Positions 1 to 14,501 of a stretch of 64,000 bases of DNA are shown piece by piece. The notes under the pieces were generated by a model. It made no database searches, was not told the origin of the DNA, and saw nothing but the letters and a program-made list of their open reading frames with translations. The stretch is taken from the NCBI GenBank assembly GCA_001940855.1, contig MSGS01000059.1:2245-66244 (forward strand), written 5' to 3'. Numbering within the stretch: the stretch's first letter is position 1; every line of letters starts with the position of its first letter. Both the position numbers and the translations under genes were made by a program. Source of the DNA: Christensenellaceae bacterium Phil1. Its GTDB lineage: Bacteria > Bacillota > Clostridia > Christensenellales > CAG-138.

Positions 1-1
1 G

Positions 2-481
2 GTTTTCGGGCGTAATGGTATAAAGCTGCGCCTTTTCGTGCGCGCGTATGCGGTTTAAGAAGTCCACGTCGTATCTTGCTTTTACCGCGGCTATAATGGG
101 TATGTTCCCATCCAGCGCGTTGAACACAGCCCGCTTGAACTTTTCAGCATCCTTTTCCATGAAGCCGAGTTCATCCATTATTATGTATCCGCCCGGCTTT
201 GCGGCGGTTATGTATTCCGCGCCCAGCGTATTGAACACATTTGTATATACATCGCGTATGCAAATGTCGCACCGGCCTATAAGATTAGCGCTGCCGTATG
301 TGCGCTCCGCTTCCGTTTGCCGAGCAGGATGAATATATATTGGAAACAGCCCGTCCGCATCCGCGGTTGAAAGCATCTTTGTGCAGTACCCGTATATGGG
401 GGCGTTTGCGTCCATGCACAGCCTGCGTATCAACGTGGACTTGCCAACGCCTTTTGCGCCGCATATCAATATGTGCTTCAT
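2..481 (-). CDS. Nucleoside-triphosphatase (THEP1/NTPase_1 family), 3' end outside window
   Basis: Hand-translated from ATG at 481: MKHILICGAKGVGKSTLIRRL (Walker A) ... YIIMDELGFME (Walker B of this family); open to the window edge, absent from the ORF track. Confidence 0.8.
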   Translation of the reverse strand, partial: MKHILICGAKGVGKSTLIRRLCMDANAPIYGYCTKMLSTADADGLFPIYIHPARQTEAERTYGSANLIGRCDICIRDVYTNVFNTLGAEYITAAKPGGYIIMDELGFMEKDAEKFKRAVFNALDGNIPIIAAVKARYDVDFLNRIRAHEKAQLYTITPEN

Positions 482-501
482 ATGGAGTCACCTTTCTATA
501 C

Positions 502-531
502 AAAAATACCATCCGTGAAGGATGGTATTTT
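502..531 (-). terminator. Intrinsic terminator downstream of tRNA-Thr
   Basis: AAAATACCATCC-GTGAA-GGATGGTATTTT inverted repeat. Confidence 0.75.
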
Positions 532-534
532 GCG

Positions 535-611
535 TGGAGCTGGTGATGGGAGTCGGACCCATGAACCTCGTCATTACCAATGACGCGCTCTACCAACTGA
601 GCTACACCAGC
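535..611 (-). tRNA. tRNA-Thr(GGT)
   Basis: Reverse complement folds as a cloverleaf: GCTGGTG acceptor stem, D arm GCTC-AGTTGGTA-GAGC, anticodon arm CGTCA-TTGGTAA-TGACG, T arm ATGGG-TCCGACT-CCCAT, encoded CCA. Confidence 0.95.
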
Positions 612-739
612 GAACCGTTCATGACGCTTACCGCGTCAACAGGATATATTATACTATCATATGCGGATATATGCAAGGATTTTTTTTGACAAGTTTTACT
701 TTTTTGCATATGCCCGCAAACGGAGCTTTTTTGGCGGCG

Positions 740-1531
740 TTATTTCATGCCAAGTTCTTTGTCTATGCTGGCCTGAATGGCGGCGTGCACCGCGCTTTCA
801 AAGCCGCAGCGCTGCAATGCCAGCACGCCTTCTATTGTCGTGCCGCCGGGGGTGGTGACGGAATCGATAAGGGCATATGGATGCATGCCGCTTTCGCTCA
901 CCAGCTTTGCGCTGCCCATTACCGCGCTTGCGGCAATGCTGAGCGCCTTTTGCTTGCTAAGCCCGTTTTTTACGCCCGCGCGGGCCATGGCGTCGATAAA
1001 CATATAAACATATGCCACGCCGCAGCCGGCTATGGCGGAGAATGTTTCAAACTCGCCCTCGTCAAGTTCAATGAGTTCGCCAACCTTGCCGAAGGCGAAG
1101 CGGAACGCATCAAGCTGCGCAGCCGTAACGTTTGCGGAGGCTGCATAGCCCGTTGTGGATGCGCACACGTTTGCGTTAACGTTGGGCATTATGCGTATTA
1201 TGCCGGCGTCGCGGCCTATCCCTTCGCGTATGGCGGCAATGCCGTACCCTGCGGCTATGGACATAACAAGCGCGTCGGTGCGCATGGCGCGGCCCACGCG
1301 GGGCAGAATGTCTGCAAAGGACTGCGGCGTGGTGGCAAGCACTATCGCGTCCGCCTGCGCGGCGGCTTCAAGCGTATCGCACACGGTTATGCCAAATTCG
1401 CCCGCCAAAGCGTCCGCCTTTTCGCGCGTGCGGTTGAAGGCAAGTATGTCGCATGGCGCAACGCCGCCCGCGACCATGCCGCGGATTATTGCGGCAGCCA
1501 TGCTGCCGGTGCCGATGAATGCGTATTTCAT
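740..1531 (-). CDS. proC: Pyrroline-5-carboxylate reductase
   Basis: FIGTGSMA dinucleotide-binding motif, RIMPN, VTTPGGTTIEG signature. Confidence 0.95.
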   Translation of the reverse strand: MKYAFIGTGSMAAAIIRGMVAGGVAPCDILAFNRTREKADALAGEFGITVCDTLEAAAQADAIVLATTPQSFADILPRVGRAMRTDALVMSIAAGYGIAAIREGIGRDAGIIRIMPNVNANVCASTTGYAASANVTAAQLDAFRFAFGKVGELIELDEGEFETFSAIAGCGVAYVYMFIDAMARAGVKNGLSKQKALSIAASAVMGSAKLVSESGMHPYALIDSVTTPGGTTIEGVLALQRCGFESAVHAAIQASIDKELGMK

Positions 1532-1551
1532 GAGTGTCTCCTTTGTAATTC

Positions 1552-1577
1552 AAAAGAGCGGCGCTGGCCGCTCTTTT
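1552..1577 (-). terminator. Intrinsic terminator after the displaced original lysS 3' end
   Basis: AAAAGAGCGGC-GCTG-GCCGCTCTTTT hairpin just after the stop codon at 1583-1585. Confidence 0.65.
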
Positions 1578-1591
1578 ATGCTTTACTTTAT

Positions 1592-1613
1592 GGGCTTCAT
1601 AGTGGGGAACAGC
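1592..1613 (+). repeat. Attachment site, integrase-proximal
   Basis: GGGCTTCATaGTGGGGAAcAGC, 20/22 match to 12968-12989; minus strand reads LFPTMKPIK-stop. Confidence 0.88.
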
Positions 1614-1721
1614 GCAGAAAAAATACGCATCGCTTTATATGCCGTTAAAAGCCCGCTGTTCGCCATGTTTTCTGCACCATCCTTTCTGTATCTTCGCTTA
1701 TCTTCCCGCTTCTTACCCATG

Positions 1722-1747
1722 AAAATGGGTACAAAAGTGGGTAAAAC
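1722..1747 (+). repeat. Putative integrase arm-type binding sites
   Basis: AAAATGGGTAcaaaaGTGGGTAAAAC, echoed by AAAATGGGTAaaccGTGGGTAAAAAC at 12892-12918 near the other att site. Confidence 0.65.
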
Positions 1748-1764
1748 CTGTAGAGATAAAACCC

Positions 1765-3036
1765 TTAGCTAATCTTGATTTTGCCCTCCAAGTTGAAGAT
1801 GCTTTCCTTTTTCTTTTCCTTGGTGGCTTCGCTGTACACATTCATTGTGGTTGAAATGTCAGCGTGTCCCATAATCTCTTGAATGACCTTCAAATTGGTT
1901 TCGTTCTCACAAAACCGTGTGCAGAAAGTGTGTCTCAGATTATGGACGGTAAAGTGTGGCAGCAGCACCGGCTCCCTATGTTCTTCTTCCGCACAGGCGC
2001 TTTCCGCAGCGTTATAGTCACGGCTGATACGCTCGATTGCCCTGTTGATGCAGTGGGGAGAAATACAATCCCCGAACCTGTTCTGGAAGATGAACCCGCT
2101 ATATCCATCGACAACGGATTGGTTAAAGCCATGCCGCATCTGGGACAACCGTGCTTCCAATAAAGCCTGTTTGACCTCTGAAAGCATTGGCACAATCCGC
2201 ACACCCGCTTTTGTCTTCGGCGTGGTGATACGGAACCTACAGTCCCCGCCGTCTTCGCCCTGCCGATAAATCAGATTGTGGTTAATACTGATGATTTCGT
2301 CCTTGAAATCGCAATCTTCCCACCGCAACCCGATAACCTCACCGACCCGACAACCAGTCCCCAGCAACACCGTAAAAAGCGGCAACCAGTGCTGGTAGGT
2401 CTTATGTCCAGCAACATAGCTTACAAACGCTTCTTGCTGGGCTTCGGTCAAAGCGTGGCGTTTGGGCTTCTCCCAATCATGGCTTCGCTTGATTTCATTC
2501 ATCACGCCATCGGTTGGGTTCAACCGAATTAGCCCGTCTCTGACCGCCACATTGAATATGGGGTGAAGAATTGTATGGATAATCTCCATACTGTTTGGCT
2601 TGAAGCCAACATCGTTGATGAGGTGGATATAGAAGTTTTTCACATGGCTGTATCGGATACTTCCAATGTTCATCTGCCCCAGCTCATCGTGTACATATTT
2701 CTTGTACATATACTTGTAGTTGGCTCTGGTAGAGTGCTTTATTTCATACTTGCTTTGAATGTAGCTATCAAAGAAGCTGTTAAGCGTTGTGCGATAAGCC
2801 GCATATCTGTTGATGTCATCGTCCACATCACGCAGAACCGCTTTCTCCATTTCTCGGAGAGACTTTTCACACCGCTTTCCAGCCGGTAAGCTATCTGTCT
2901 CCACCAATTTCCAACTGTATATGCTTCGGGTTTCCCCCTTTACATCTTTGTAACGGAACTCATACCGTCCGTCCTCACGCTGCCGTTCTCCTTGCCGGAG
3001 GTTTCTGCCTTTATTATCTTTTTTCTTAGTATTCAT
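1765..3036 (-). CDS. int: Tyrosine integrase (Tn916-like, N-terminal arm-binding domain)
   Basis: N-terminal KDNKGRNLRQGERQREDGRY; catalytic TGCRVGE, KT, HNLRHT, MGH, VY. Confidence 0.95.
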   Translation of the reverse strand: MNTKKKDNKGRNLRQGERQREDGRYEFRYKDVKGETRSIYSWKLVETDSLPAGKRCEKSLREMEKAVLRDVDDDINRYAAYRTTLNSFFDSYIQSKYEIKHSTRANYKYMYKKYVHDELGQMNIGSIRYSHVKNFYIHLINDVGFKPNSMEIIHTILHPIFNVAVRDGLIRLNPTDGVMNEIKRSHDWEKPKRHALTEAQQEAFVSYVAGHKTYQHWLPLFTVLLGTGCRVGEVIGLRWEDCDFKDEIISINHNLIYRQGEDGGDCRFRITTPKTKAGVRIVPMLSEVKQALLEARLSQMRHGFNQSVVDGYSGFIFQNRFGDCISPHCINRAIERISRDYNAAESACAEEEHREPVLLPHFTVHNLRHTFCTRFCENETNLKVIQEIMGHADISTTMNVYSEATKEKKKESIFNLEGKIKIS

Positions 3037-3125
3037 GGATTCTCCTTTATTTCATTACAAAGAGAACCCGCTTATAAGACATAATCAATATACCATAAGC
3101 GGGCTTCATTTTCAAGGTGGGGGGC

Positions 3126-3335
3126 TTAGACCAAGCTAAGCCCGTCCACATATTGTTCAAACAATTTCCGTTTGATTTGTATACGGTTTCCATTACAAAG
3201 GATATAATCCGCATCCTCATTATCCCGAATTAGCTTTCTTAATTTGTTTTCGCCAATTCTGAAATAGGCGGCAGCTTCTTCGATGGATAATGTATACTGC
3301 TCCCACACAGGGATTTCAACAGTGCTACTACGCAT
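3126..3335 (-). CDS. xis: Excisionase (Tn916 Xis-like)
   Basis: [26 protein letters not shown]...[12 protein letters not shown]; directly upstream of the integrase. Confidence 0.9.
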
Positions 3336-3638
3336 ATTACCGTCCTTTCAATTTGATAGCACCGTTGCCTCCTGCCTTGGGCGAGGATATGAGCGCACAG
3401 AATGTGCGTGATTTGTTATCAAGCAACAGTTTGTTAGATAATGGCTTAACCATCATGCTTTTGTTGGATTAAATCAAAGCTATTGGCTATGGCAATCCGT
3501 TGTGGCACATCACCCCCTTTGTCCAAAAAATAAATGTTGACATCAATCAGCGCATAGGAAGATACGCTCGTTATTGTCATATCACCTTGCTTTTTCAGAT
3601 ATTTTTTTATTAAGGAAACAACTCCGAAAACCCCATAA

Positions 3639-4952
3639 CTAAGCCTTTTCCAGCACCTTCTTTGTACGGGGCTGGTACAAGGCTTCATTAACCTCAAACC
3701 AACGAAACAGTAAGCTTCTCATTCTGGACGATGGAATATAAAGGTTAATGCTTTGCTCGTTGCGTATGGCACTTCTCCAAACCCACTGCAATAATTCACT
3801 CGTTGCAAAGCAATCCTCATCTATTGGACTCCCTCTACGCAAAAAATACTTTTCAATTTCTGGTGGAAGGTAACGGTTTAACAGATACAAAAGCGTGGTT
3901 CGTTCTGAATAAACATTTGTAGCTCTTGCCGTACAGGAAACAAAACATTGCAGCTTTTGTTTAACTTCATCGGGCAGTTTCTGTTCCTCGGCTGTAAGCC
4001 GCCGAATATACTTAAAGCCCTTTGTTTTTTCCAATTTCTTGTGAATGTCGTGTTGCTTTGTAGTAGTCCACATTATGCTATTAGTGGGTGCTTTTACATA
4101 CCCCTTATAATTTCTCATAGCGTTTTGAATTTTCCGTATCTGTTCTGAACTTGCCGCTTTTAACCAATTTACAGAAAAAGCGTTTGTTTTGCTGCCAATC
4201 CGGTTTAATTCTCCAGAGTAAATATTTACAAGGGTGAAAAGCGCACTTTTATGCCTTTTGCAGTCATCATATGGACACAGCCGGAACCTATCGTTTTCCG
4301 TATGCTCTGCGGAACACTTTGTATAAGTCAATCCATAGATACGCATATAAGCTGCGAGCATACTTCCCTCAAAGAGATAGGTTAAGATGTACACGCACTT
4401 GAAAGCTGAAAACATATCTACTGGATATTCCCAATATAGAGTATCGTCAATGCAGCGCAGACTGCCAGCTTTAGCAAGCCGTTCAACCTCAGAATAATGA
4501 AAATCATCTGTTGTCGCACCACTCCACTCAACACAATAATCGTCAGACACAAGGATATAACCCTCTTGTTTTAACCATCGTACATCGCCTTTGGTGATGG
4601 TCTTATTGTCAAGAGATTTTACCTCGTTATTGTATTCTCGGAAAATGTCAAGAGCTTCATCCAATACCAATGTATAACCGCCCTCGCGGATAAGCTGTAC
4701 CGTTTCAGGCGTCGCTTTCAAAAAGAGTGCATGTGTTGTCACAATGTTTTCTCCAATGGATAATAGCTTGTGAAACGCATCTAATTTCCCATTGCCTGTA
4801 TTGCAGGGCTGTTTGAAGCGATTTTGCGTCTTCTCGATAATGCGCTCTATTTCGGATAAGTACGGTGTCACATAGATATAGCTGCCCTCTAAATCGGCAT
4901 TTATCTGTTCCAACATAGCAGAAGTCTTTCCGCTACCCATGATGCTATCCAC
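3639..4952 (-). CDS. SF2/DEAD-like P-loop helicase-family protein (true start probably slightly upstream)
   Basis: Walker A MGSGKT, YVTPYLSE, TTHALF, Walker B LVLDE, ILTY, C-terminal ELLQWVWRSAIR. Confidence 0.75.
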   Translation of the reverse strand: MDSIMGSGKTSAMLEQINADLEGSYIYVTPYLSEIERIIEKTQNRFKQPCNTGNGKLDAFHKLLSIGENIVTTHALFLKATPETVQLIREGGYTLVLDEALDIFREYNNEVKSLDNKTITKGDVRWLKQEGYILVSDDYCVEWSGATTDDFHYSEVERLAKAGSLRCIDDTLYWEYPVDMFSAFKCVYILTYLFEGSMLAAYMRIYGLTYTKCSAEHTENDRFRLCPYDDCKRHKSALFTLVNIYSGELNRIGSKTNAFSVNWLKAASSEQIRKIQNAMRNYKGYVKAPTNSIMWTTTKQHDIHKKLEKTKGFKYIRRLTAEEQKLPDEVKQKLQCFVSCTARATNVYSERTTLLYLLNRYLPPEIEKYFLRRGSPIDEDCFATSELLQWVWRSAIRNEQSINLYIPSSRMRSLLFRWFEVNEALYQPRTKKVLEKA

Positions 4953-4975
4953 TACTGTAATAGTCGTTTTGATAA

Positions 4976-5176
4976 CTATTTTACCTCCATTCTTTCTTGG
5001 ATAAAGCGATATAGCCTATCCGCACATTTTCCACAGATACAAAGTGTTACGCTTTCCCCATCGTAGGAACTGCCATAGCCAAGCTTTAAGCCGATAGATG
5101 ACAATGCCCACTCAGCCACATCAGCCCTGCCGCATATCCGGCACTTCGTAGGCATAAAACTACTCTTTGATTGCAT
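4976..5176 (-). CDS. Small putative zinc-finger protein
   Basis: 66 aa, CRIC ... CICGKC; RBS GGGGGTG upstream; abuts the helicase gene. Confidence 0.6.
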   Translation of the reverse strand: MQSKSSFMPTKCRICGRADVAEWALSSIGLKLGYGSSYDGESVTLCICGKCADRLYRFIQERMEVK

Positions 5177-5198
5177 TTCTTCACCCCCTCTCTATGTT

Positions 5199-5360
5199 TT
5201 ACTTCTTACCGCAAAGGGTAGGACACTTGCGACGGCATGGATGCCCTACACCTCTAATCACAAAGGTTGAGACACCCGCCATCCTTAATCGCAAGGGGTG
5301 TACCCTGCTTGCTCTTAATCGCAAAGGGACAACCCCCCAGCCCATTAAACACAAAAAAGC
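5199..5360 (+). repeat. Array 1 of degenerate ~29-bp hairpin repeat (core CYYTAATCGCAAAGGG), four clear copies and one weak
   Basis: Copies at about 5199, 5247, 5278, 5308 and weakly 5338. Confidence 0.75.
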
Positions 5361-5462
5361 CGCACCCATCGAACGGATATCCGTTTGACAAGTGCGGCAT
5401 TTTTATATGCGCATTATTTATCCAGTTGAAAAAGTTCCCTTAGAAAACAAATCAACCGACTA

Positions 5463-5687
5463 CTACTGTTTCTTTTTGCTCTCTGGGCTATTAAAACCAA
5501 AACCGCCCCCCTCACGCTCCATGCGTTGGGCAATCGCTTGCAAAACATATGCTTGCACCGATTGCCCTGCATCAGCGGCGGCGGCTCTAATCTTCGCCCC
5601 TATCTCCTTGGACGGTCTAATCATAATATTATCCTGCTTACGGTTAAACTCTGTACTTGCTCTTTTCTGTGCTTCTGTTGACATCAT
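5463..5687 (-). CDS. Ribbon-helix-helix (Arc/DUF1778-like) DNA-binding protein, probable repressor
   Basis: STEAQKRAS..FNRKQDNIMIRP..KIRAAAADAGQSVQAYVLQAI pattern; divergent from the ardC operon. Confidence 0.7.
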   Translation of the reverse strand: MMSTEAQKRASTEFNRKQDNIMIRPSKEIGAKIRAAAADAGQSVQAYVLQAIAQRMEREGGGFGFNSPESKKKQ

Positions 5688-5701
5688 ATCACCCCCACAG
5701 C

Positions 5702-5808
5702 ATTATAACATATTTTCTTATATCAGTAAACTGATACATGTGCACAAAAATATCAGTTAACTTTTATTCGATTTACCCCTTTACAAAATATCAGTTAACT
5801 GATATAAT
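5702..5808. promoter_or_regulatory. Divergent sigma-A promoters with three palindromic operators TATCAGTTAACTGATA
   Basis: Operators at 5721-5736, 5751-5762 (partial), 5789-5804; plus promoter TTTACA(5780)-17bp-TATAAT(5803); minus promoter TTTACT(5730)-17bp-TATAAT(5707). Confidence 0.8.
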
Positions 5809-5863
5809 GCAAACTGTCAAGCCAATAGCTATGACAATATCAACAAAAAAAGGAGACAGAAAA

Positions 5864-6139
5864 ATGAGTAGTATGGAAATCAGTAAGCAGGTCAAGGAAC
5901 TGCGGGAACTGCGCCGCATGGCTGACGAAATCGCTGCCGAAATCGACAGCATTCAAGATGCAATCAAAGAGGAAATGACCGCCCGAAATGTGGAAGAAAT
6001 GACCGGCGATGATTACAAAATCACTTGGAAATCGGTTGTTTCCCGCCGCTTCGACAGTGCCGCCTTTCGTAGCACCCACAGCGAACTATTCAACCAGTAC
6101 ACAAAGGAAAGCACTTCCCGCCGTTTTGTTCTGGCATAA
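5864..6139 (+). CDS. Hypothetical 91-aa protein resembling the C-terminal region of phage YqaJ-type exonucleases
   Basis: RBS AAGGAG before ATG 5864; coiled coil then ITWKSVVSRRFDS..HSELFNQYTKESTSRRF. Confidence 0.7.
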   Translation: MSSMEISKQVKELRELRRMADEIAAEIDSIQDAIKEEMTARNVEEMTGDDYKITWKSVVSRRFDSAAFRSTHSELFNQYTKESTSRRFVLA

Positions 6140-6274
6140 AGAAAAGCCCCTTGCAGTACAGCCCGTCAAAGCAGAGTGCAAGAGACTTAGACGCTAACCC
6201 AATGCGGGGTAGCACTGCCATTATAGCATGGCTGCCCCGCTCATATCAAGATAAGAAGAAAAGGAGCAGCTACT

Positions 6275-7123
6275 ATGGAAAAGTTTGATATCTACAATGC
6301 AGTAACTGAGCGCATCATTTCCCAGCTTGAAAAGGGCATCATCCCTTGGCAAAAGCCGTGGACAGGCATTCAAGGCGGCGCAATCAGCGGCGCAACCGGC
6401 AAGCCTTATTCCTTGCTCAATCAAATGCTGTTGGGCAAGGCAGGGGAATACTTCACCTATAATCAAGTGCTTGCACAGGGTGGAGCCGTCCGCAAGGGCG
6501 AAAAGGCGCAAATCGTTGTATTCTGGAAACAGGTCAAAGTAGAGGACACCCAAAGCGATGAAGCAAAGGAAAAGCTAATCCCCATGCTGCGCTATTACAA
6601 TGTTTTTCACATTGACCAGTGCGACGGTCTGACACCACGCCAAACGTCCACAGAACGCCCTGCAAGCCCTGTAGCGGAACAAATCATATCAGAATACAGC
6701 AACCGTGAAAAGGTCGAAATACGCCACCAGCGTGGCGATGAAGCCTACTACAGCCCAGCAAGGGATTGTATCATGCTGCCGCTTACAGAACAGTTTTGCT
6801 CCAATGCGGAATACTACTCCACCATATTCCATGAAATGGCGCACAGTACAGGGCATCAATCCCGCTTGAACCGCCTAAAGGCTACCGCCCATTTTGGAAG
6901 TGCTGACTACAGCAAGGAAGAATTGACCGCCGAAATCAGCGCCGCCGCCCTGCTGAATTATACCGGCATTGAAACAAAGGGCAGTTTCCGCAACAATGCC
7001 GCCTATATCCAAAATTGGCTATCCGTTCTGAAAAATGACCGCCGCCTTATCGTGACCGCCAGCGGAGCCGCCGCCAAAGCTGTAGACTACATTCTGGACA
7101 AGGGGGTAAATTGCTATGAATAA
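6275..7123 (+). CDS. ardC: ArdC-family antirestriction protein (ssDNA-binding domain plus zincin-like domain)
   Basis: LEKGIIPWQKPW, TGKPYSLLN, GGAVRKGEK, YYNVF, FHEMAHSTGH..RLNR, EELTAE, AYIQNWL. Confidence 0.9.
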   Translation: MEKFDIYNAVTERIISQLEKGIIPWQKPWTGIQGGAISGATGKPYSLLNQMLLGKAGEYFTYNQVLAQGGAVRKGEKAQIVVFWKQVKVEDTQSDEAKEKLIPMLRYYNVFHIDQCDGLTPRQTSTERPASPVAEQIISEYSNREKVEIRHQRGDEAYYSPARDCIMLPLTEQFCSNAEYYSTIFHEMAHSTGHQSRLNRLKATAHFGSADYSKEELTAEISAAALLNYTGIETKGSFRNNAAYIQNWLSVLKNDRRLIVTASGAAAKAVDYILDKGVNCYE

Positions 7124-7253
7124 GAACTTGAAAGAGCCGTTGAAAGATGTTCTTTTCTGGATAATCTTCTTTATCGCTGCGCCACTGCCGCTTGTGGGAG
7201 GTCTGCTGTATTTCATCTGCGGTAGTTTGGGCTGGATTGATATCAACCTATGA
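7116..7253 (+). CDS. Small membrane protein (45 aa)
   Basis: Hand-translated MNKNLKEPLKDVLFWIIFFIAAPLPLVGGLLYFICGSLGWIDINL; RBS AAGGGGG; overlaps the ardC stop. Confidence 0.55.
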   Translation: MNKNLKEPLKDVLFWIIFFIAAPLPLVGGLLYFICGSLGWIDINL

Positions 7254-7280
7254 GTAATGGCGGTAGGGGTGTGGAGTTTC

Positions 7281-7466
7281 TGCACCCCTAACCGCAAAGG
7301 GGGTAGCCCCCGCTGCGGGGCTTCCTTACACCCTTTACCGTAAGGGGTACTACACAAAAGCAGCGTATGTTTCTCTACACCTTTAACCACAAGGGGGCTA
7401 ACACCATGTTAACAGCGGGGCAGCGTGTGCCTTACCCTGCACCCTTAATCGCAAAGGGGTAGACAC
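7281..7466 (+). repeat. Array 2 of the same ~29-bp hairpin repeat (TRCACCCYTAAYCGCAAAGGGGTAGACAC), four copies
   Basis: Copies at 7281, 7327, 7376, 7438, same orientation as array 1. Confidence 0.8.
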
Positions 7467-7595
7467 GCAAGTCCTCAAAAGTGCGTATAACTCCACAAAT
7501 ACGCACAGCAAAACGCCTTGTTTTCAAGGTTTTTCAAGTGTCCCGCTGAAAGGTTCGTTATTTCACTCTTTTGAGTTCGTATTTTGGAGGTTGTT

Positions 7596-8162
7596 ATGAA
7601 CAAGAAAACACTGTCCCTTACTGCCGAGCAGTACAAGGAAATTATTCAAACCATGAAAAGTGGTTTCGCTGGCTGCCGCCCTAATGGACGGATTGCAACC
7701 GCCCTTATGCTGGAAGCAAACTTGGGCTTGCGGATATCCGATATTCTAAGGCTGCGCTTATCCGATATTGTGAAAGACGGCGAAAGATACCGCCTATCCA
7801 TCGTGGAGCAAAAGACAGGGAAAGCCCGTGTATTTACCGTCCCGCTTGCCTTGTATCAGTTTATCCGCTGTTACTGCATAGATAACGGAATACCCGCCGA
7901 TGCTCTTATTTTCCCGCTATCTGAAAGAGCAGTGCAAAAGCAGCTAAAGATTGTTTGTGATTATCTGGACTATCACGGCATCAGCACCCACAGTTTTCGT
8001 AAGTTCTACGCTACAGAGATATACCGCAACAGCGGATATAACATCGCCCTTGTCCAGCAGCTTCTACAGCACAGCAACACCGCCGTAACACAAAAGTACA
8101 TCGGCATTCAGCAAAAGGAATTGGAACAGGCGATTGAAAACCATTTATGCTTGGATATCTAA
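7596..8162 (+). CDS. Minimal tyrosine recombinase (catalytic domain only, 188 aa)
   Basis: LGLRISD, EQKTGK, STHSFRK, LLQH, TQKYIG; RBS GGAGG before ATG 7596. Confidence 0.9.
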   Translation: MNKKTLSLTAEQYKEIIQTMKSGFAGCRPNGRIATALMLEANLGLRISDILRLRLSDIVKDGERYRLSIVEQKTGKARVFTVPLALYQFIRCYCIDNGIPADALIFPLSERAVQKQLKIVCDYLDYHGISTHSFRKFYATEIYRNSGYNIALVQQLLQHSNTAVTQKYIGIQQKELEQAIENHLCLDI

Positions 8163-8170
8163 AGCATGAT

Positions 8171-8199
8171 AAAGGCGGGGATATTCGTCCCCGCCTTTT
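8171..8199. terminator. Bidirectional intrinsic terminator
   Basis: AAAGGCGGGGA-TATTCG-TCCCCGCCTTTT between convergent genes. Confidence 0.8.
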
Positions 8200-8204
8200 G
8201 TCGT

Positions 8205-9155
8205 TCATTCTTCTTCTCTGGAAAAAGCATTTTCAATCACAAGTTCAAAAGCGATAACTTTATCATAGTTTATGATGGGATTGCTCGCTGCATTTGTGAC
8301 CTCCCACACATATTCGAGTATCAATTTACGCTGTGGACTAAGTACCCATTGATATGCGCGAGGGTCTGCCCAGCTTTGATAGTTTTCGCTTTTTGTTTCC
8401 GTGTGTCCAATGCCAAGGGTATCATCGATTTGAGATATCAGCATATCCATATCAGCCTGCGTTGCAGTTTGTCCAACGCCAATTTCTTCAACCGTATAGT
8501 TTTTCATATCCACATAGTTGAACGAGGGTTGCCATGTGAAACTGGCATATTTTACATTTTCATCAATGAAGAAATATTCCATGCAACCCTCAAAATCCAT
8601 AAGATTGCATACATATTTAACATAAGTTGTATTGTCTATATTATCCGTAAGATTATGTCCGAAACCTGTAAAGCGGTTTAGGTCTTTTGCGGCTAACTCA
8701 TCATAGATACTTTTCATTGAAGCAGCGGAGCAGCCGTAGCTAAAGTATATTCCATCAGCAATAGCGTCTAACCGAGAACCATATCTCGCCATATCGAGTT
8801 CGCAGAAATACTCCCCTTGTTTTAGAGGGCTTATATTCCCATTCTCATAGCAGAGATAATAAGTGATAACTTCTCTGTCATATCCTCCGAAACCATTTTG
8901 TGCGGAAAAATCTACATCAAGGTTGCAATAACAGCGCCCATCTATTTCTATGGGGTCTTCATTGAAAGTCAGATTGTTTATCATCAATGACTGAGGATTT
9001 TTTAAGACGCTTTTTATATCTTCTTCCACATACCCTGTTACAATCTCTTGCAAAGTATCCGTTTTCACAGCGGCAGGATTTGATGTACCGCCGCAAGCAG
9101 CCAATGTGATACAAAGCAAAATCGCCACCAATAGTAGGATAAAAGTCTTTTTCAT
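8205..9155 (-). CDS. Hypothetical lipoprotein (element cargo)
   Basis: MKKTFILLLVAILLCITLAAC lipobox, RBS GGAGG; LKNPQSL...DFSAQNGFGG motif. Confidence 0.8.
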   Translation of the reverse strand: MKKTFILLLVAILLCITLAACGGTSNPAAVKTDTLQEIVTGYVEEDIKSVLKNPQSLMINNLTFNEDPIEIDGRCYCNLDVDFSAQNGFGGYDREVITYYLCYENGNISPLKQGEYFCELDMARYGSRLDAIADGIYFSYGCSAASMKSIYDELAAKDLNRFTGFGHNLTDNIDNTTYVKYVCNLMDFEGCMEYFFIDENVKYASFTWQPSFNYVDMKNYTVEEIGVGQTATQADMDMLISQIDDTLGIGHTETKSENYQSWADPRAYQWVLSPQRKLILEYVWEVTNAASNPIINYDKVIAFELVIENAFSREEE

Positions 9156-9190
9156 TTCCACCCTCCTGTTTTCCGCAAAGCCATGAGCGC

Positions 9191-10228
9191 TCATTCCATT
9201 ATGGATATTCGCATTTCGTCTGCATCAGAGCAATACACTATCCACTGTGTTGTTTCACCGGGGGCAAGCCCCTCCGCTCCAACAGCATATGTCCATTCGG
9301 TATCAATCACTTTTCCGTCAGAATTGTACAGATGCACCTTTATTCGCACAAACTCAACATAGGATGCAGAGTTGTTTGTAGCGGTTCCATCAACATACGG
9401 ATTAGACCCCGCATGATACTTAGCCTTGATGGTTAAGCCGTTATATGTAAGGGTGTCGGTGGTTGCGCTATCCCTATCCTCTACGGCAGCATAGTTGGTT
9501 TCAATCTCTGAAACCGTTCTTTCAAACGCAATTTCGTTTTGCATAGAATGTCCATTTGTAAAATAGCTTGAAAGAGAAGCATCAAAGGGAAGCCCATCGG
9601 TAATAGAGGATTGCCAAGAGCAATAAGAACTTTCATCCATCATAGGATATTCATGTTCCCAAGAGCCGCCCTTGCTCACTATCACTTGTCCCGAACATGG
9701 TGACCCTACTAATGCAACCATATCATCGTGGATTTTGCACATGATTTCTGGTGTAATCCCGTCATCATAAAACTCAAATTCGATATTGGACAAATTACCT
9801 GCCCAATCAAACTTAAAAACAGCTTGTCCCTTGCACCCATGAAAGCCGAATACATCGTCCACTTCAACCTGATATGCCTGATACGCATTGTACAGTTCAT
9901 GGGCAGAAAGGCTGTAATCTGCATCGAACCTCAAGTTAATATATTTCTCCACCTCGGATACTGTGGCATCGGGAACAGTCAGCAAGCCTACAGGGATATC
10001 TCCAAAGTAAGTGCATTCAAAGGTGTTCCAGTCTGTTTTAACTTCTTCGGGTGAAGATACTGTTGTAGAAGTATTTTGATATGGCTGTTCTTCCGTAATT
10101 TCTGCTGTGGGCGATGTCTCGTTGATGCTGGTTTGCTCATCGGTAGAGGGGAGCTGTTCCGTCCCGCAAGCGGAGAGAAGCAGCGTAATAATAAGCAACA
10201 TGGATATTGCTATTCTCTTGTTCACCAT
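9191..10228 (-). CDS. Lipoprotein with C-terminal FxLYD-like domain (element cargo)
   Basis: LLLSAC lipobox, S/T/E-rich linker, C-terminal VDGTATNNS..VHLYNSDGKVIDT..LAPGET. Confidence 0.8.
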   Translation of the reverse strand: MVNKRIAISMLLIITLLLSACGTEQLPSTDEQTSINETSPTAEITEEQPYQNTSTTVSSPEEVKTDWNTFECTYFGDIPVGLLTVPDATVSEVEKYINLRFDADYSLSAHELYNAYQAYQVEVDDVFGFHGCKGQAVFKFDWAGNLSNIEFEFYDDGITPEIMCKIHDDMVALVGSPCSGQVIVSKGGSWEHEYPMMDESSYCSWQSSITDGLPFDASLSSYFTNGHSMQNEIAFERTVSEIETNYAAVEDRDSATTDTLTYNGLTIKAKYHAGSNPYVDGTATNNSASYVEFVRIKVHLYNSDGKVIDTEWTYAVGAEGLAPGETTQWIVYCSDADEMRISIME

Positions 10229-10364
10229 ATCCCCCGCTTTCATAAGGTTATACCTTTTTCAATTATATCAAACCGCACTCCTTAAATCAACTATATTAGT
10301 TTTTAATTCCACCATAATCATACACTTTTCATCCATAATATTTGTGGAAGGAAGTGATGAAAAA

Positions 10365-10652
10365 GTGGATTTTAGTAATCGCCTAAAAGAATTGCGAACG
10401 CAAGCGGGGTTGACCCAGCTTCAATTAGCCCAGCGTTTAGGCATAACGAAAAGCGTTATTTCCTTCTATGAATTGAGCGAAAGAGCACCATCGCCCGATG
10501 TGCTGATAAGATTGGCACAGATTTTCCATGTAAGTACTGATTATCTTCTGGGCTTGGATAAGAAGGAAACTCTTGACATAACAGACCTAAATAAAGATGA
10601 CATAGCGATTTTGCGGGCATTGACCAATAGCCTACGAGAAAAAGCCAAATGA
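10365..10652 (+). CDS. XRE-family HTH regulator
   Basis: GTG start; FSNRLKELR..GLTQLQLAQRLGITKSVISFYE..P..L..LA.IF.VSTDYLLG. Confidence 0.9.
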   Translation: MDFSNRLKELRTQAGLTQLQLAQRLGITKSVISFYELSERAPSPDVLIRLAQIFHVSTDYLLGLDKKETLDITDLNKDDIAILRALTNSLREKAK

Positions 10653-10672
10653 GCATATGTCAAAGCAAGGAT

Positions 10673-10716
10673 AATCACCGCAGATTGGGCGTACTCCCAT
10701 GCGGTGATTTTGTTTT
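10673..10716 (+). terminator. Intrinsic terminator between the two XRE genes
   Basis: AATCACCGCA...TGCGGTGATT followed by TTGTTTT. Confidence 0.55.
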
Positions 10717-10810
10717 GCTATTGTGGGTTCATTCACATGGTTGCGAATATCATCACCCATGACACCAAGTGTAACGCCATTTGCGGTATTTTTAGAAAGG
10801 CGGTATCCAA

Positions 10811-11107
10811 ATGGCTCTACTTCACTTTTCCGAACGGCTAAAGCAGCTTCGTACCGAACGGAAACTGACCCAACGGCAGGTTGCGATGATGGTAGGTGTG
10901 ACCCGCTCCACGCTAAGCACCTATGAAAATCAAGCCCGCTATCCCAGCTATGATATTCTTGTAAGCCTATCGAGGATATACGGTGTCACCACCGATTATC
11001 TACTCTGCAAAGAGGAAAGGCAGTACATAGATATCACCGGCTTGACCGAGGAAGAAAGTGCCGCTATCCGTCAGATGGTATATTTGTTACAGAAGTCCAA
11101 AGAGTAG
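10811..11107 (+). CDS. XRE-family HTH regulator (paralogue of the previous gene)
   Basis: FSERLKQLR..LTQRQVA..VTRSTLSTYE..GVTTDYLL..IDITGL. Confidence 0.9.
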   Translation: MALLHFSERLKQLRTERKLTQRQVAMMVGVTRSTLSTYENQARYPSYDILVSLSRIYGVTTDYLLCKEERQYIDITGLTEEESAAIRQMVYLLQKSKE

Positions 11108-11117
11108 GAGGCAGCAC

Positions 11118-12824
11118 ATGAAGCGCATAAAACAATTAGCAGGGGCTATTCTTGCAGCCGCTGTTGTTTTCAGCATGAGCATTTATGCCTATGCCGAAGA
11201 AAGCCCCATCCCGCCCAGCGAGGGAAATCCACCGATGTCAAGCGAACAGCCGCCAGAGCCGACCACGGAGACAGCACCACCGGCGAATGAGGAACCATCA
11301 TCCGACCCACAGGAGCCAGCAGAGGAAGCCCCCGTTATCGTCAATACACTGGACGAGCTACAAGCAGCCATCGAAGCCGCCGATGATGGGGATACCATCA
11401 TCATTGGTTCAAAAATAACTATATCCTCCAGTGTTCAAGTGGGCAGCCCTGATAAAACAATTAACCTCAAAGCATCCGATAGTTTTCCAAATAGTGCGCT
11501 TTTTTACTTGTATACGGAGAGCAATCAAAAGATAGCTTTTCATAATCTGATATTAGATGGAAACAGCGTCAACAGGAGAAAAGTTTATGCCATTGAAAGC
11601 GACTTGTTTAATAATCCAGACAATCAAGGGCAATGGCTGTTTAACAGGATTACTTTTCAGAACTTCAACAGTATGCGGTCTACTATCACTGTAGATAATG
11701 CTGATGCTTTGCTTACTGACTGCTGTATTAGGAATAACTACAGCAGACGCAGTGGTGGTATTGAAATCTCACCTGCTTCTTTTGCCGAAATTGTGAACTG
11801 CAATTTTTCTTCCAACAGAGCAGAAGGAAATGGTGCTGCAATTTACTGCCGGGGAAATGCAAAGATAGTCAATTCTTCTATTATTGGCAACTCCACTATT
11901 AGTGATGGTACAGTTATAAATGGCGGGGGAATACATATTGCAGACACGGCAGTTTGCGAAGTAGTATCCTGCACCATTACGGACAACAACGCCGATTTAG
12001 GCGGTGGCATTGGTTGCTTTGGAACATTAACCCTTTGCGATACTGTAATTTTCGGCAATACTGGACGGTTGGGCGGCAGCGATATTCGGGCGTTTGGTGG
12101 CAGTAATATTGCTGTGACCTACACCGACACCATGAAAGCCGTCTATACCGAAAATGACCCGCTCGGCTTTTATGCCGATGATTTTGAAAATCCCTTCAAT
12201 GCGGAAACCAATGTAACAGCCTTGGTAGGGGAAACGCTTGAAATCCAGAACAATACAAGCCCTAATTTCGGGGTGCGTTTTCTCTTTGCAAGCGACCTTC
12301 CCGCCCCTGCTCCTACTCCCACGCCAACACCCGAACCTGACAGCAGCGCAGAAAACCAGCCCATATATCCCCGCCCCGATGATGAAGACCAGCCGCCATT
12401 TATCGAAGTGGAACCCGACTATCCAGAAATAGAAATTGTGCCTATCCCCGAACCAGAGATAGAGCCAGAGATAATCCCCGAACCAGAGCCAGTCATACAA
12501 GCATCTGACCCGACACCCGCACCCACACCACCGAATATCGAGAGCCGCGAACCCGCTCCCGCTAAAGTGGCAGAGGATATCCCAACGCCGGAACCATCTT
12601 CATCGGCAAGTATAGAACCCTCTCAGCCGCAGCCAACGCAAGAGCAAGAAAACCCTGTTGAGACCAGCGGCGATATATCGGACAGCGCAGACGATATAGT
12701 TATCGTGTCTACCGATGAAGACGAACCCGACACCTCACCGCTGCTGTACGCTGCAATCCCTATTGCACTTGTTGCCGCCTCGGTACCGCTCTATATCCGC
12801 TTCAAAGGAAAGCGCCGCAAATAG
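11118..12824 (+). CDS. Surface-anchored right-handed beta-helix protein with Pro/Glu-rich stalk
   Basis: Signal peptide ending AYA, GGGI/GAAI plus FxxN repeats (Pmp/pectin-lyase-like), PE/PT-rich region, C-terminal TM helix and KGKRRK. Confidence 0.8.
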   Translation: MKRIKQLAGAILAAAVVFSMSIYAYAEESPIPPSEGNPPMSSEQPPEPTTETAPPANEEPSSDPQEPAEEAPVIVNTLDELQAAIEAADDGDTIIIGSKITISSSVQVGSPDKTINLKASDSFPNSALFYLYTESNQKIAFHNLILDGNSVNRRKVYAIESDLFNNPDNQGQWLFNRITFQNFNSMRSTITVDNADALLTDCCIRNNYSRRSGGIEISPASFAEIVNCNFSSNRAEGNGAAIYCRGNAKIVNSSIIGNSTISDGTVINGGGIHIADTAVCEVVSCTITDNNADLGGGIGCFGTLTLCDTVIFGNTGRLGGSDIRAFGGSNIAVTYTDTMKAVYTENDPLGFYADDFENPFNAETNVTALVGETLEIQNNTSPNFGVRFLFASDLPAPAPTPTPTPEPDSSAENQPIYPRPDDEDQPPFIEVEPDYPEIEIVPIPEPEIEPEIIPEPEPVIQASDPTPAPTPPNIESREPAPAKVAEDIPTPEPSSSASIEPSQPQPTQEQENPVETSGDISDSADDIVIVSTDEDEPDTSPLLYAAIPIALVAASVPLYIRFKGKRRK

Positions 12825-12864
12825 AAAAGACCGCCCTTGCTATCACAGCAAAGGCGGTTTTCTT
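12825..12864. terminator. Bidirectional terminator, likely also ending lysS transcription in the integrated state
   Basis: AAAAGACCGCC...GGCGGTTTTCTT hairpin between convergent genes. Confidence 0.7.
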
Positions 12865-12955
12865 GTCCTATAAGCGTGTTCTTTTCAGTCCAAAATGGGT
12901 AAACCGTGGGTAAAAACACCGTCGTATTGCCCGCAAACCCGCATAAACACTGGGT

Positions 12956-14473
12956 TTATTTGTCCAGGGGCTTCATTGTGGGGAAGAGCAGCACGTCGCG
13001 TATGCTGGTCTCTCCGGTTAGCAGCATGACCATGCGGTCTATGCCTATGCCTATGCCGCCGGTGGGGGGCATGCCGTATTCAAGCGCCTGGCAGAAGTCC
13101 TCGTCTATCATCATGGCCTCGTCGTCGCCCTTGGCGCGCTCCATAGCCTGCTGCACAAAGCGGCCGCGCTGGTCTATGGGGTCGTTCAGCTCACTGAAGG
13201 CGTTTGCGTATTCGTGGCCGGCAATGAACAGCTCAAAGCGTTCCGTTATGCCGCTTACGCCCTTCTTGCGCTTGGAAAGCGGGGAGTTTTCCACGGGATA
13301 GTCTATTATGAACGTGGGCTGGATAAGCTTATCCTCAACGAATTCGTCGAACGCCAGCGCCAATAGCTTACCCTTGGTGGCTGTTTTGTCGTCAAAGGGC
13401 AGCTTTATCTTCTTTGCAAGCTCGCGCGCCTCTTCGTCCGTTGCGCAGCCGAGAAAGTCAGCATTTGCGTATTTCTTCACGGCGTCGTTCATGCTCAGCC
13501 GTGCAAACGGCGGGGTAAGGTCGATATCGTACTCGCCGTATTTTATCTTGGTGGTGCCGTTTACCAGCATGCAGCAGCGGGAGAACAGATCCTCGCACAG
13601 CTCCATCATTCCGTGGTAATCGGTATACGCCTGATATATCTCAATCGTGGTGAACTCGGGGTTATGCGTAGCGTCCATGCCCTCGTTGCGGAAAAGGCGG
13701 CCTATTTCATAAACCCTTTCAAGTCCGCCAACTATGCAGCGCTTGAGGTGCAGCTCCGTGGCGATGCGCAGATACATGTCTATATCCAGCGTATTGTGGT
13801 GCGTTATGAACGGCCTTGCGCTCGCGCCGGAGGCGGCGGAGTTGAGCACGGGGGTCTCGACCTCTATAAAGTCAAGCTCGTTCAGCCTCCTGCGTATCTC
13901 GGCCTCTATCTTGGCGCGCTTTATGAAGGTGTTTCGCACCTCGGGATTTACTATAAGGTCAACGCTGCGCTGGCGGTATCTCAGTTCCTGATCCTTCAGC
14001 CCGTGGAACTTTTCGGGCAGGGGACGGAGGGACTTTGAAAGCAGGGTAACGCTCGTTGCATGGATTGAAACCTCGCCCGTGCGGGTTTTGAATACCATGC
14101 CGGTAACGCCGATTATGTCGCCTATATCCATGGCCTTAAAGTCGGCATAGGATTCTTCGCCAACATCGTCGCGCTTTATGTAAACCTGAATATCGCCCTT
14201 GTAATCCAAAATGTGCGCAAAGGAAGCCTTGCCCATTATTCGCTTGGACATCATTCTGCCCGCAACGGTAACGGTTTTGCCTTCCATGGCGTCGTAATTT
14301 TCAATTATCTCTGTGCTGTAAGCATCGCGGTCGAACTTGACTATTTCAAAGGGATCCTTGCCGCGTTCCTGCAATGCCTTCAGCTTGTCCCGCCTTATCT
14401 GGAGCAGCTCGTTAAGCTCCTCGGCGGTTTGTTCGCGCTCCTCCACGGGAGCCTTAATGTTGTTTTCTTCCAT
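12956..14473 (-). CDS. lysS: Lysine--tRNA ligase (class II)
   Basis: [58 protein letters not shown]. Confidence 0.98.
12968..12989 (+). repeat. Attachment site within the lysS 3' end
   Basis: GGGCTTCATtGTGGGGAAgAGC, direct repeat of 1592-1613. Confidence 0.88.
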
Positions 14474-14501
14474 TTATGCGCCTGTCTCCTGCGTTTGAAG
14501 A

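Follow-up and report, generated by a model that had tools for sequence, protein, structure and literature searches.

Organization of the lysS island and its repeat arrays

The 64,000-nucleotide stretch of contig MSGS01000059.1 from Christensenellaceae bacterium Phil1 analyzed here (the window) carries an integrated element of about 11.2 kilobases (kb), which is bounded by imperfect direct repeats at 1722–1747 and 12892–12917 and is referred to below as the lysS island. Within this island lie two arrays of one short repeat, array 1 at 5197–5360 and array 2 at 7280–7466, both on the + strand, and the same repeat was found, as a single array in each, in about 15 uncultured phage contigs. The layout is the one given in the initial annotation: array 1 sits at the 5' end of an operon of Zn-finger, helicase, xis, and integrase genes, array 2 precedes the gene for a small tyrosine recombinase, and a cassette with RHH (ribbon-helix-helix) and ArdC genes occupies the space between.

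Reading from the left, the island encodes a Tn916-type tyrosine integrase (1765–3036, − strand; Integrase_DNA, 4.3e-27; Phage_integrase, 1.7e-25), a small leftward xis-like open reading frame (ORF) with no family match, a YonV-family SF2-helicase-like P-loop protein of 437 amino acids (aa) (3639–4952, − strand; phrog_2467, 2.7e-66), and Znf66, a 66-aa four-Cys Zn-ribbon protein (4976–5176, − strand) whose start codon is 21 nucleotides (nt) from the first unit of array 1. Beyond array 1 are the 74-aa RHH protein (5463–5687, − strand) and a + strand gene set (5864–7253) comprising orf91, ArdC (6275–7123), and a 45-aa membrane peptide (7116–7253), followed after array 2 by the small recombinase, a 188-aa protein consisting of the catalytic domain only (7596–8162, + strand), and a 171-aa ORF (8166–8681, + strand). 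No relaxase or capsid genes were found in the element. A palindrome at 5353–5404 lies directly after array 1 and directly after the RHH gene; it folds on both strands (−26.6 kcal/mol on the + strand and −34.1 on the −, z about −6.8) with U-runs on both, and thus has the shape of a bidirectional terminator.

The two-cluster repeat reported in the initial annotation was confirmed as eight clear same-strand units and one degenerate unit. Array 1 holds four clear units, with cores at 5206, 5255, 5286, and 5316, together with the degenerate ninth unit (5338–5360), which overlaps the A-run of the terminator palindrome; array 2 holds four, with cores at 7289, 7335, 7384, and 7446. Start-to-start spacings are 49, 31, and 30 nt in array 1 and 46, 49, and 62 nt in array 2, in agreement with those first given. 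Repeat-finding on the window returned families of seven and five copies, each of which spanned both clusters. A loose 12-nt core pattern, T[TA]A[ACT][CT][AG][CT]AA[AG]GG, searched for on both strands of the window, matched eight times on the + strand within the arrays and once elsewhere, and across the whole 2.85-Mb assembly it matched 63 times, these two clusters alone having same-strand neighbors less than 400 nt apart. A narrower pattern gave 3 matches where 0.04 were expected. The host genome is not enriched for the core motif (28 observed versus 19 expected), and the idea that the units are targets of a host factor was rejected on this ground.

The partial inverted copy noted earlier just before array 2 (7260–7276, − strand) is also real, and folding pairs it with the first unit of that array in a 16-pair hairpin, within a stretch (7254–7312) that folds at −36.5 kcal/mol (z, −4.9). 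The window arrays had no match among the Rfam 15 covariance models at E up to 1. One gut-metagenome run contains, in pieces, a relative of the window region with about 95% identity, and a contig of this relative (run X5) joins position 7405 back to 7317 with 21 other letters between, which suggests a different number or order of units in array 2.

Across arrays, the unit consensus is CACCCTTAACCGCAAAGGGGT with a period of about 24 nt (a base period of 23 to 24 nt in compact arrays and 30 to 62 nt in the window); spacings of 47 to 48 and 72 nt are seen because intervening units have decayed. The best-conserved part is an asymmetric 10-nt core, ACCGCAAAGG, which is nearly invariant over 60 distinct units from unrelated phages and islands, with the left arm CACCCTT kept only partly across the same units. 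The consensus forms a perfect 7+7+7 hairpin (a 7-bp stem and a 7-nt loop, CACCCUU-AACCGCA-AAGGGUG) followed by a 3-nt linker.

The repeat in uncultured phages

What the initial annotation missed is that phages carry the repeat too, at the start of the terL or portal operon and next to a Zn-ribbon gene. A first pattern scan of IMG/VR yielded true arrays of 3 to 10 units in eight contigs, and later scans added two-unit cases and further contigs. A second viral pattern scan returned mostly coding repeats, and a stricter two-unit pattern gave only three contigs, all already known. Neither a 10-unit array nor the Zn-ribbon protein matched anything among GenBank phages. Of five phage records scanned whole, four had their clustered motif matches at a single place, and G069, the fifth, had isolated, scattered matches only, because its two contig-end units fall outside the scan pattern. 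The array-bearing phage loci encode no relative of an island protein, with the exception of L356, which has a distant helicase and recombinase. No usable locus came from a pattern scan of metagenomes, in which an unrelated tandem repeat drowned out all else. That repeat (loci L377–L495) is a very abundant tandem of about 10 nt, of the type GACCGCAAAG and preceded by GGTATGACTAAATA, and it was seen on many short contigs from one sample group, often at contig ends.

The phage arrays occupy recurrent positions. An 80-aa Zn-ribbon gene of the zf_Tbcl family (PF13451) has the array directly upstream and divergent in eight of nine loci, the ninth being a 37-residue partial match. On the other side of the array is terL, recognized by Pfam or PHROG in L151, L152, and L376; in L153, L154, L362, and L367 it was assigned by eye through its conserved N-terminus. 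Five of seven such loci have no more than about 25 nt between the end of the last unit and the terL ribosome-binding site. Two further loci, L357 and L359, have the order terL, a reverse-strand pair consisting of a 117- to 126-aa gene and the Zn-ribbon gene, the array, and portal, and in L359 a PHROG-identified terS precedes terL. The AAAGGRG of the last unit is itself the Shine-Dalgarno sequence of the next ORF in L359 and L156. Given these positions, the phage arrays must lie in, or overlap, the terL or portal leader. In L155 and L358 the array is instead located in an early region. Five phage loci searched against Rfam 15 gave no match at E up to 0.5.

Two hairpins separate the array from the Zn-ribbon gene (L151, 3780–3900; L153, 4920–5060; and the same place in L152, L154, L362, L364, and L367). 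Their stem sequence varies between phages with pairing kept, and the second is followed by TTTTGTATTC, one more unit, and a ribosome-binding site. From its sequence, this stretch looks like an attenuator-type leader of the Zn-ribbon gene.

The island itself has no zf_Tbcl gene. Its own Zn-ribbon protein, Znf66, had no family match, a word-based protein search returned Znf66 alone, and Znf66 and zf_Tbcl are not detectably related (hhalign probability, 0.4%). Elsewhere in the host there is only an unrelated chromosomal gene for a double Zn-ribbon protein of about 90 aa (contig C75, 11772–11921, − strand), which matches the first half of the zf_Tbcl alignment with an E value of 1e-7 and is preceded by a long GC-rich leader.

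The repeat follows neither the recombinase nor the helicase

Comparison of loci with relatives of the small recombinase and loci with YonV-type helicases, including a lysS-integrated relative, showed that the repeat follows neither protein. The recombinase family is very large (5,948 proteins at E up to 1e-10), and 79 recombinase-relative loci were taken from species-representative genomes. Arrays were present in three of these: L014, which has a helicase relative at 70% and, in the array 1 position, seven units, with array 2 absent; L080, which lies beside lysS, has a 61% integrase relative and other genes replacing the helicase, and carries a pair of units at position 1 and a single unit at position 2; and L016, which has units at position 2 only. 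A fourth locus, L008, has a single unit. The initial annotation asked whether the intervening cassette varies, and among relatives it does: ArdC is present in the window, in L014, and in L080, and L016 has a SprT-like protein in its place. The single unit of L008 (5800–5895) lies upstream of a Znf66 homologue in an insertion or deletion of about 85 nt relative to L006 (about 5900).

On the helicase side, a scan of viral contigs gave no match when the query was the lone helicase sequence, and the YonV loci came from an alignment-based scan. One of 80 such loci on viral contigs has the repeat (L351/L356), there 2.9 kb from the helicase gene. In L356 (9062–11395), three identical 58-nt units accompany a 275-aa phrog_216 integrase beside a YonV-type helicase, and this gene pair may be a distant cousin of the island gene set. 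A DNA search of 61 related genomes found, outside the window's own genome, only a 536-nt match of 64% identity to the recombinase gene, and in an order-level scan the pattern occurred in 5 of 401 genomes, with this repeat only in the genome that contains the window.

The small recombinase appears to have a site of its own. An inverted repeat of the form GTTCGTATAA-N6-AAATACGAAC is conserved upstream of the recombinase gene (loci L004–L082), and in the window it is represented at 7481–7506 by GTGCGTATAA-N6-AAATACGCAC, with arms GTGCGTA and TACGCAC. Under a strict pattern, 34 of 76 usable loci have the inverted repeat, 33 of them at about 103 to 151 nt upstream and one at −39, and many more show it by eye with one arm degenerate; the arms change together between loci. 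The family also has two further half-sites in direct orientation before the recombinase start codon, near the ribosome-binding site, which in the window are at 7553–7563 and 7575–7585. Judged from this sequence pattern, the inverted repeat is likely the recombination or autoregulation site of the recombinase.

Other features of the island

The left end of the element (1722–1747) adjoins the Tn916-type integrase gene and shares two 10-mers with the right end within a repeat of about 26 nt. The right end lies about 40 nt from the stop codon of lysS (12956–14473, − strand). Each end repeat holds two boxes of the type ATGGGTA/GTGGGTAAAA, which are possibly arm-type sites of the integrase.

The 437-aa protein has the Walker A motif GSGKT and the DExx-type motif LDEA, which place it with the SF2 helicases; its homologues carry PF27199 (YonV_C) and some also DEAD or ResIII, and no solved relative was found by sequence. 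Its ORF remains open upstream of the listed GTG start, and a GGAGG at 4985–4989 has no canonical start at the usual distance (4950–4990, − strand), leaving the true start uncertain.

Where the RHH gene and orf91 diverge, their promoter region holds three to four copies of a TATCAGTTAACTGATA-type palindrome (5718–5807), annotated as RHH operators. Palindromes at the same place in L014, L016, and L019 differ in sequence, as expected for RHH operators. The RHH protein was also considered as the binder of the repeat units and was rejected, as L019 has a 68% RHH relative and no array.

The sole CRISPR array of the assembly, on contig C67 at about 20387, has at least 14 repeats that end in ATTGAAAT, and we take the repeat to be of type I-C. 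Mimicry of a CRISPR repeat was rejected because this host repeat is unrelated to the unit and no Rfam CRISPR-DR model matches the arrays.

Comparison with known systems

Among the closest known systems is the Ltr superfamily. The activators RinA, LtrC, and ArpU need two to four direct repeats next to their own gene, upstream of terS (PMC3753634). Systems of this superfamily in phages of Gram-positive bacteria (RinA, LtrC, ArpU, and Alt) are reported to place direct repeats between a small regulator gene and a terminase gene at the head of the late operon, as here, with repeats that are specific to the cognate protein and satellites that depend on the late operon (PMC3753634, PMC3152322). Repeats lie between Zn-ribbon and terminase genes in L151, L152, L153, L154, L362, L364/L365, and L367. 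The differences are considerable, however, since the Ltr repeats are 7 nt long, occur in two to four copies after a codirectional activator gene, and act as double-stranded DNA, whereas the present units are about 24 nt long, number 3 to 10, and have a divergent Zn-ribbon neighbor. No Ltr-family protein was found among the ORFs scanned, and the neighbor matches PF13451 zf_Tbcl only. Unlike in the Ltr systems, moreover, the present repeats also occur in an island that lacks the neighboring protein.

Other likenesses are partial. P2 Ogr and P4 delta are zinc-finger late activators, and P4 promoters are switched by P2 Ogr in a case of helper-satellite cross-activation. The resemblance here would consist of a small zinc-binding phage regulator and satellite promoters carrying its target sites; Ogr sites, however, are single dyads near −55, as opposed to tandem arrays, and the satellite nature of the island is a proposal. 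The N-nut system of lambda is similar in having a leader hairpin followed by a terminator and genes, with two sites per element, but a nut site is a single boxA-boxB bound by an arginine-rich peptide, while the present arrays have many tandem units, a Zn-ribbon candidate, and a read-through that we infer. The P4 origin with ori and crr is likewise comparable in that two clusters of one direct repeat lie kilobases apart in a small element that encodes a helicase. In contrast to iteron origins, the present repeat is not tied to the helicase family and occurs also at phage terL and portal genes.

Repeats of RNA type in tandem, in some cases with a terminator and a protein gene behind them, are also a trait of type III toxin-antitoxin systems, and phages are reported to carry orphan arrays (pseudo-ToxI) as mimics (PMC3475682, PMC5086642). 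ToxI units, however, are about 36 nt long, compared with 24 nt here. No ToxN/AbiQ-like protein was found, the phage neighbor being an 80-aa Zn-ribbon protein. On the + strand of the window there is no ORF after the array 1 terminator before orf91, and a ToxI-like order of repeat, terminator, and gene is seen here solely in terL-type phages, where it runs along the opposite strand. A search of 400 further genomes of the order turned up no array of the present repeat.

Discussion

We propose that the window arrays are orphan copies of a module by which phages exert control, and that a small phage protein reads them, as a leader or stand-alone RNA, on the unit strand; we put the probability of this proposal at about 0.35. 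It starts from the repeat itself, its distribution, its fixed strand, its neighbors, and the promoters and terminators predicted around it. Since certain uncultured phages of the gut have the repeat once, in front of their packaging genes, the element probably responds to, or interferes with, such phages. The home of the module would be a group of temperate phages with one array and a divergent Zn-ribbon gene at the head of the terL or portal operon, and the island would hold two orphan arrays whose units are read, on the strand given in the initial annotation, as part of a transcript. Each unit of about 24 nt would then form a weak hairpin, and the tandem copies would serve as a landing pad for a small protein supplied by the phage, most likely the Zn-ribbon protein, which once bound could set how RNA polymerase or ribosomes behave downstream.

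Array 1 of the island is followed by the same-strand terminator and then by + strand orf91, ardC, the membrane peptide gene, array 2, the recombinase gene, and the 171-aa ORF, with the RHH gene between them crossed in the antisense direction. This order of array, terminator, and genes on the + strand means that a factor loaded at array 1 could carry transcription through the terminator and the RHH-repressed region in a nut-like manner, and the operons of the island might thereby be coupled to the phage. Transcription of the arrays is suggested by L014, where a promoter-like TTGACA-16-CATAAT (11 of 12) lies about 50 nt before the array and a same-strand intrinsic terminator follows it (−16.8 kcal/mol; z, −8.4), by L358, where a same-strand terminator lies 66 nt after the array, and by the 5353–5404 palindrome behind array 1 in the window. 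The perfect hairpin of the unit consensus and the placement of phage arrays in or across the terL or portal leader likewise favor RNA on the unit strand. Of the functions listed in the initial annotation, the two that now lead are small RNAs and a signal used in trans.

Several observations weigh against an RNA landing pad. The CCCTT/AAGGG palindrome pointed out in the initial annotation is present in the consensus, but no covariation keeps it: 67.4% of cells pair compared with 67.0% in shuffles, and 202 of 500 shuffles do equally well or better. Departures in four stem pairs, T:G in 44 cases and A:C in 13, do speak for RNA, yet this T:G excess is equally expected from an invariant, protein-contacted right half combined with neutral C-to-T drift on the left. 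The mean fold energy is equal on the two strands (−5.5 and −5.6, with −2.4 for shuffles), about a third of the units fold poorly, and the unit counts are not independent because units are related by duplication. No sigma-70-like promoter reads into either window array. In terL-type phages a terminator-like hairpin points the opposite way, from the array to the Zn-ribbon gene, with G:U on the strand that reads this way where the unit strand has C:A. As for the candidate protein, three array-bearing phage records (18 to 75% complete) are without a zf_Tbcl gene, and the zf_Tbcl model is poor (pLDDT, 59) with no fold match at E up to 0.001.

The units might instead act as double-stranded DNA to which a small regulator binds, as at an operator or an activator site; the regulator would be the Zn-ribbon protein of the phage or, in the island, Znf66. 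The units would then work in the way of late-activator direct repeats upstream of terminase genes, with island promoters switched by a phage regulator. We regard this as a serious possibility, though not a probable one. Arrays always fall in control regions between genes, where a divergent gene begins at their left end; the asymmetric core is better conserved than any other part, in a stem that does not covary; the Znf66-helicase operon has no recognizable sigma-70 promoter; and a small Zn-ribbon gene adjoins units in 11 phage loci and 3 island loci (the window, L080, and L008). Precedent is also good, since the direct repeats of the Ltr activators are needed for terS transcription (PMC3753634). 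Such sites would, however, hardly call for the dedicated promoter and terminator that bracket the L014 array, and a perfect 7-bp palindrome with unequally conserved halves would be odd for a dimer site. Several phages have no room for a promoter between the array and the ribosome-binding site, and 3 to 10 sites at a 24-bp period far exceed known activator sites.

An RNA landing pad and a DNA operator are both more likely than the remaining explanations, which are mimicry of a packaging site, iterons, recombination sites, and inert repeats. The occurrence of a single array cluster per record in four of the five phages scanned whole, the position of the array beside terL in terL-type phages that have no terS gene there, and an island of 11.2 kb with int, xis, and a helicase and with no relaxase or capsid genes found could all be read as mimicry of the pac or cos region of a helper phage, by which the island would be packaged as a satellite; cos-carrying satellites are known, and two contigs (L090 and L244) end at or in an array. 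Contig ends at repeats are nevertheless a common assembly artifact, the L359 array is flanked by terL and portal in a phage where a normal terS precedes terL, those of L155 and L358 are in early regions, and the two arrays of the island are 2 kb apart and well inside the element, so that we consider packaging mimicry unlikely. The single cluster per record, together with the constant strand and position relative to neighboring genes and a core nearly invariant across unrelated phages and islands, tells in turn against selfish or inert units, a minisatellite-like repeat spreading and expanding in intergenic phage and island DNA. The patchy presence among close relatives (as in the L008 stretch that L006 lacks), the identical L356 units, which point to recent duplication, and the many decayed units are what such a repeat would leave, and we give this idea a small chance.

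Two functions offered in the initial annotation fared worse. Arrays serving as iterons of a split replication origin for the YonV-type helicase, in the manner of P4 ori and crr, would account for direct repeats with a base period of 23 to 24 bp, which falls within the iteron length range of about 17 to 24 bp, for their place next to the helicase operon in the window and L014, and for their proximity to replication or recombination genes in L155 and L358. The repeat does not travel with the supposed initiator, however: only 1 of 80 YonV loci has it, at a distance; L080 keeps units while other genes take the place of the helicase; array 2 is missing from L014 and array 1 from L016; and the same motif is found at terL or portal in phages with unrelated gene sets. 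An iteron function is accordingly disfavored and appears quite improbable. The idea that the arrays are recombination sites at which the small recombinase excises or swaps the ArdC cassette draws on the same-strand arrays that bracket a 2-kb cassette of variable content (ArdC or SprT-like), but 76 of the 79 recombinase-relative loci have no arrays, the family has its own upstream inverted repeat with arms that change together, and arrays also occur in phages without this recombinase. Contigs of four sequencing runs compared with positions 1–14500 showed no joint removing the 2-kb cassette, although contigs cannot show rare forms. We therefore think it very improbable that the arrays are sites of this recombinase.

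Returning to the phage-linked control module, a more far-reaching hypothesis can be formulated, which we offer as doubtful. The lysS island would be a new kind of phage-dependent element of gut Oscillospiraceae-type bacteria that carries orphan copies of the late-operon repeat of its helper. The phage Zn-ribbon protein, made for terL or portal, would bind both arrays, and the outcome would be either satellite induction, with the helicase-xis-int and ardC-recombinase genes turned on, or decoy defense, in which the protein is soaked up and the late genes fail. Repeat and protein would then form an undescribed RNA or DNA recognition pair.

Nothing like this repeat system is present in Rfam or the literature searched. 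Even on a modest reading, the repeat is not a private site of the recombinase or helicase, and a very common family of 188-aa recombinases now has its own conserved and testable site. If the larger proposal is true, a new pair of small Zn-ribbon protein and repeat would control phage packaging genes. Satellite-helper pairs are hard to find in uncultured gut Clostridia, and, if the arrays are read by a phage factor, the repeat would be a simple marker in the sequence by which, in these bacteria, an integrative island could be tied to its phage partners.

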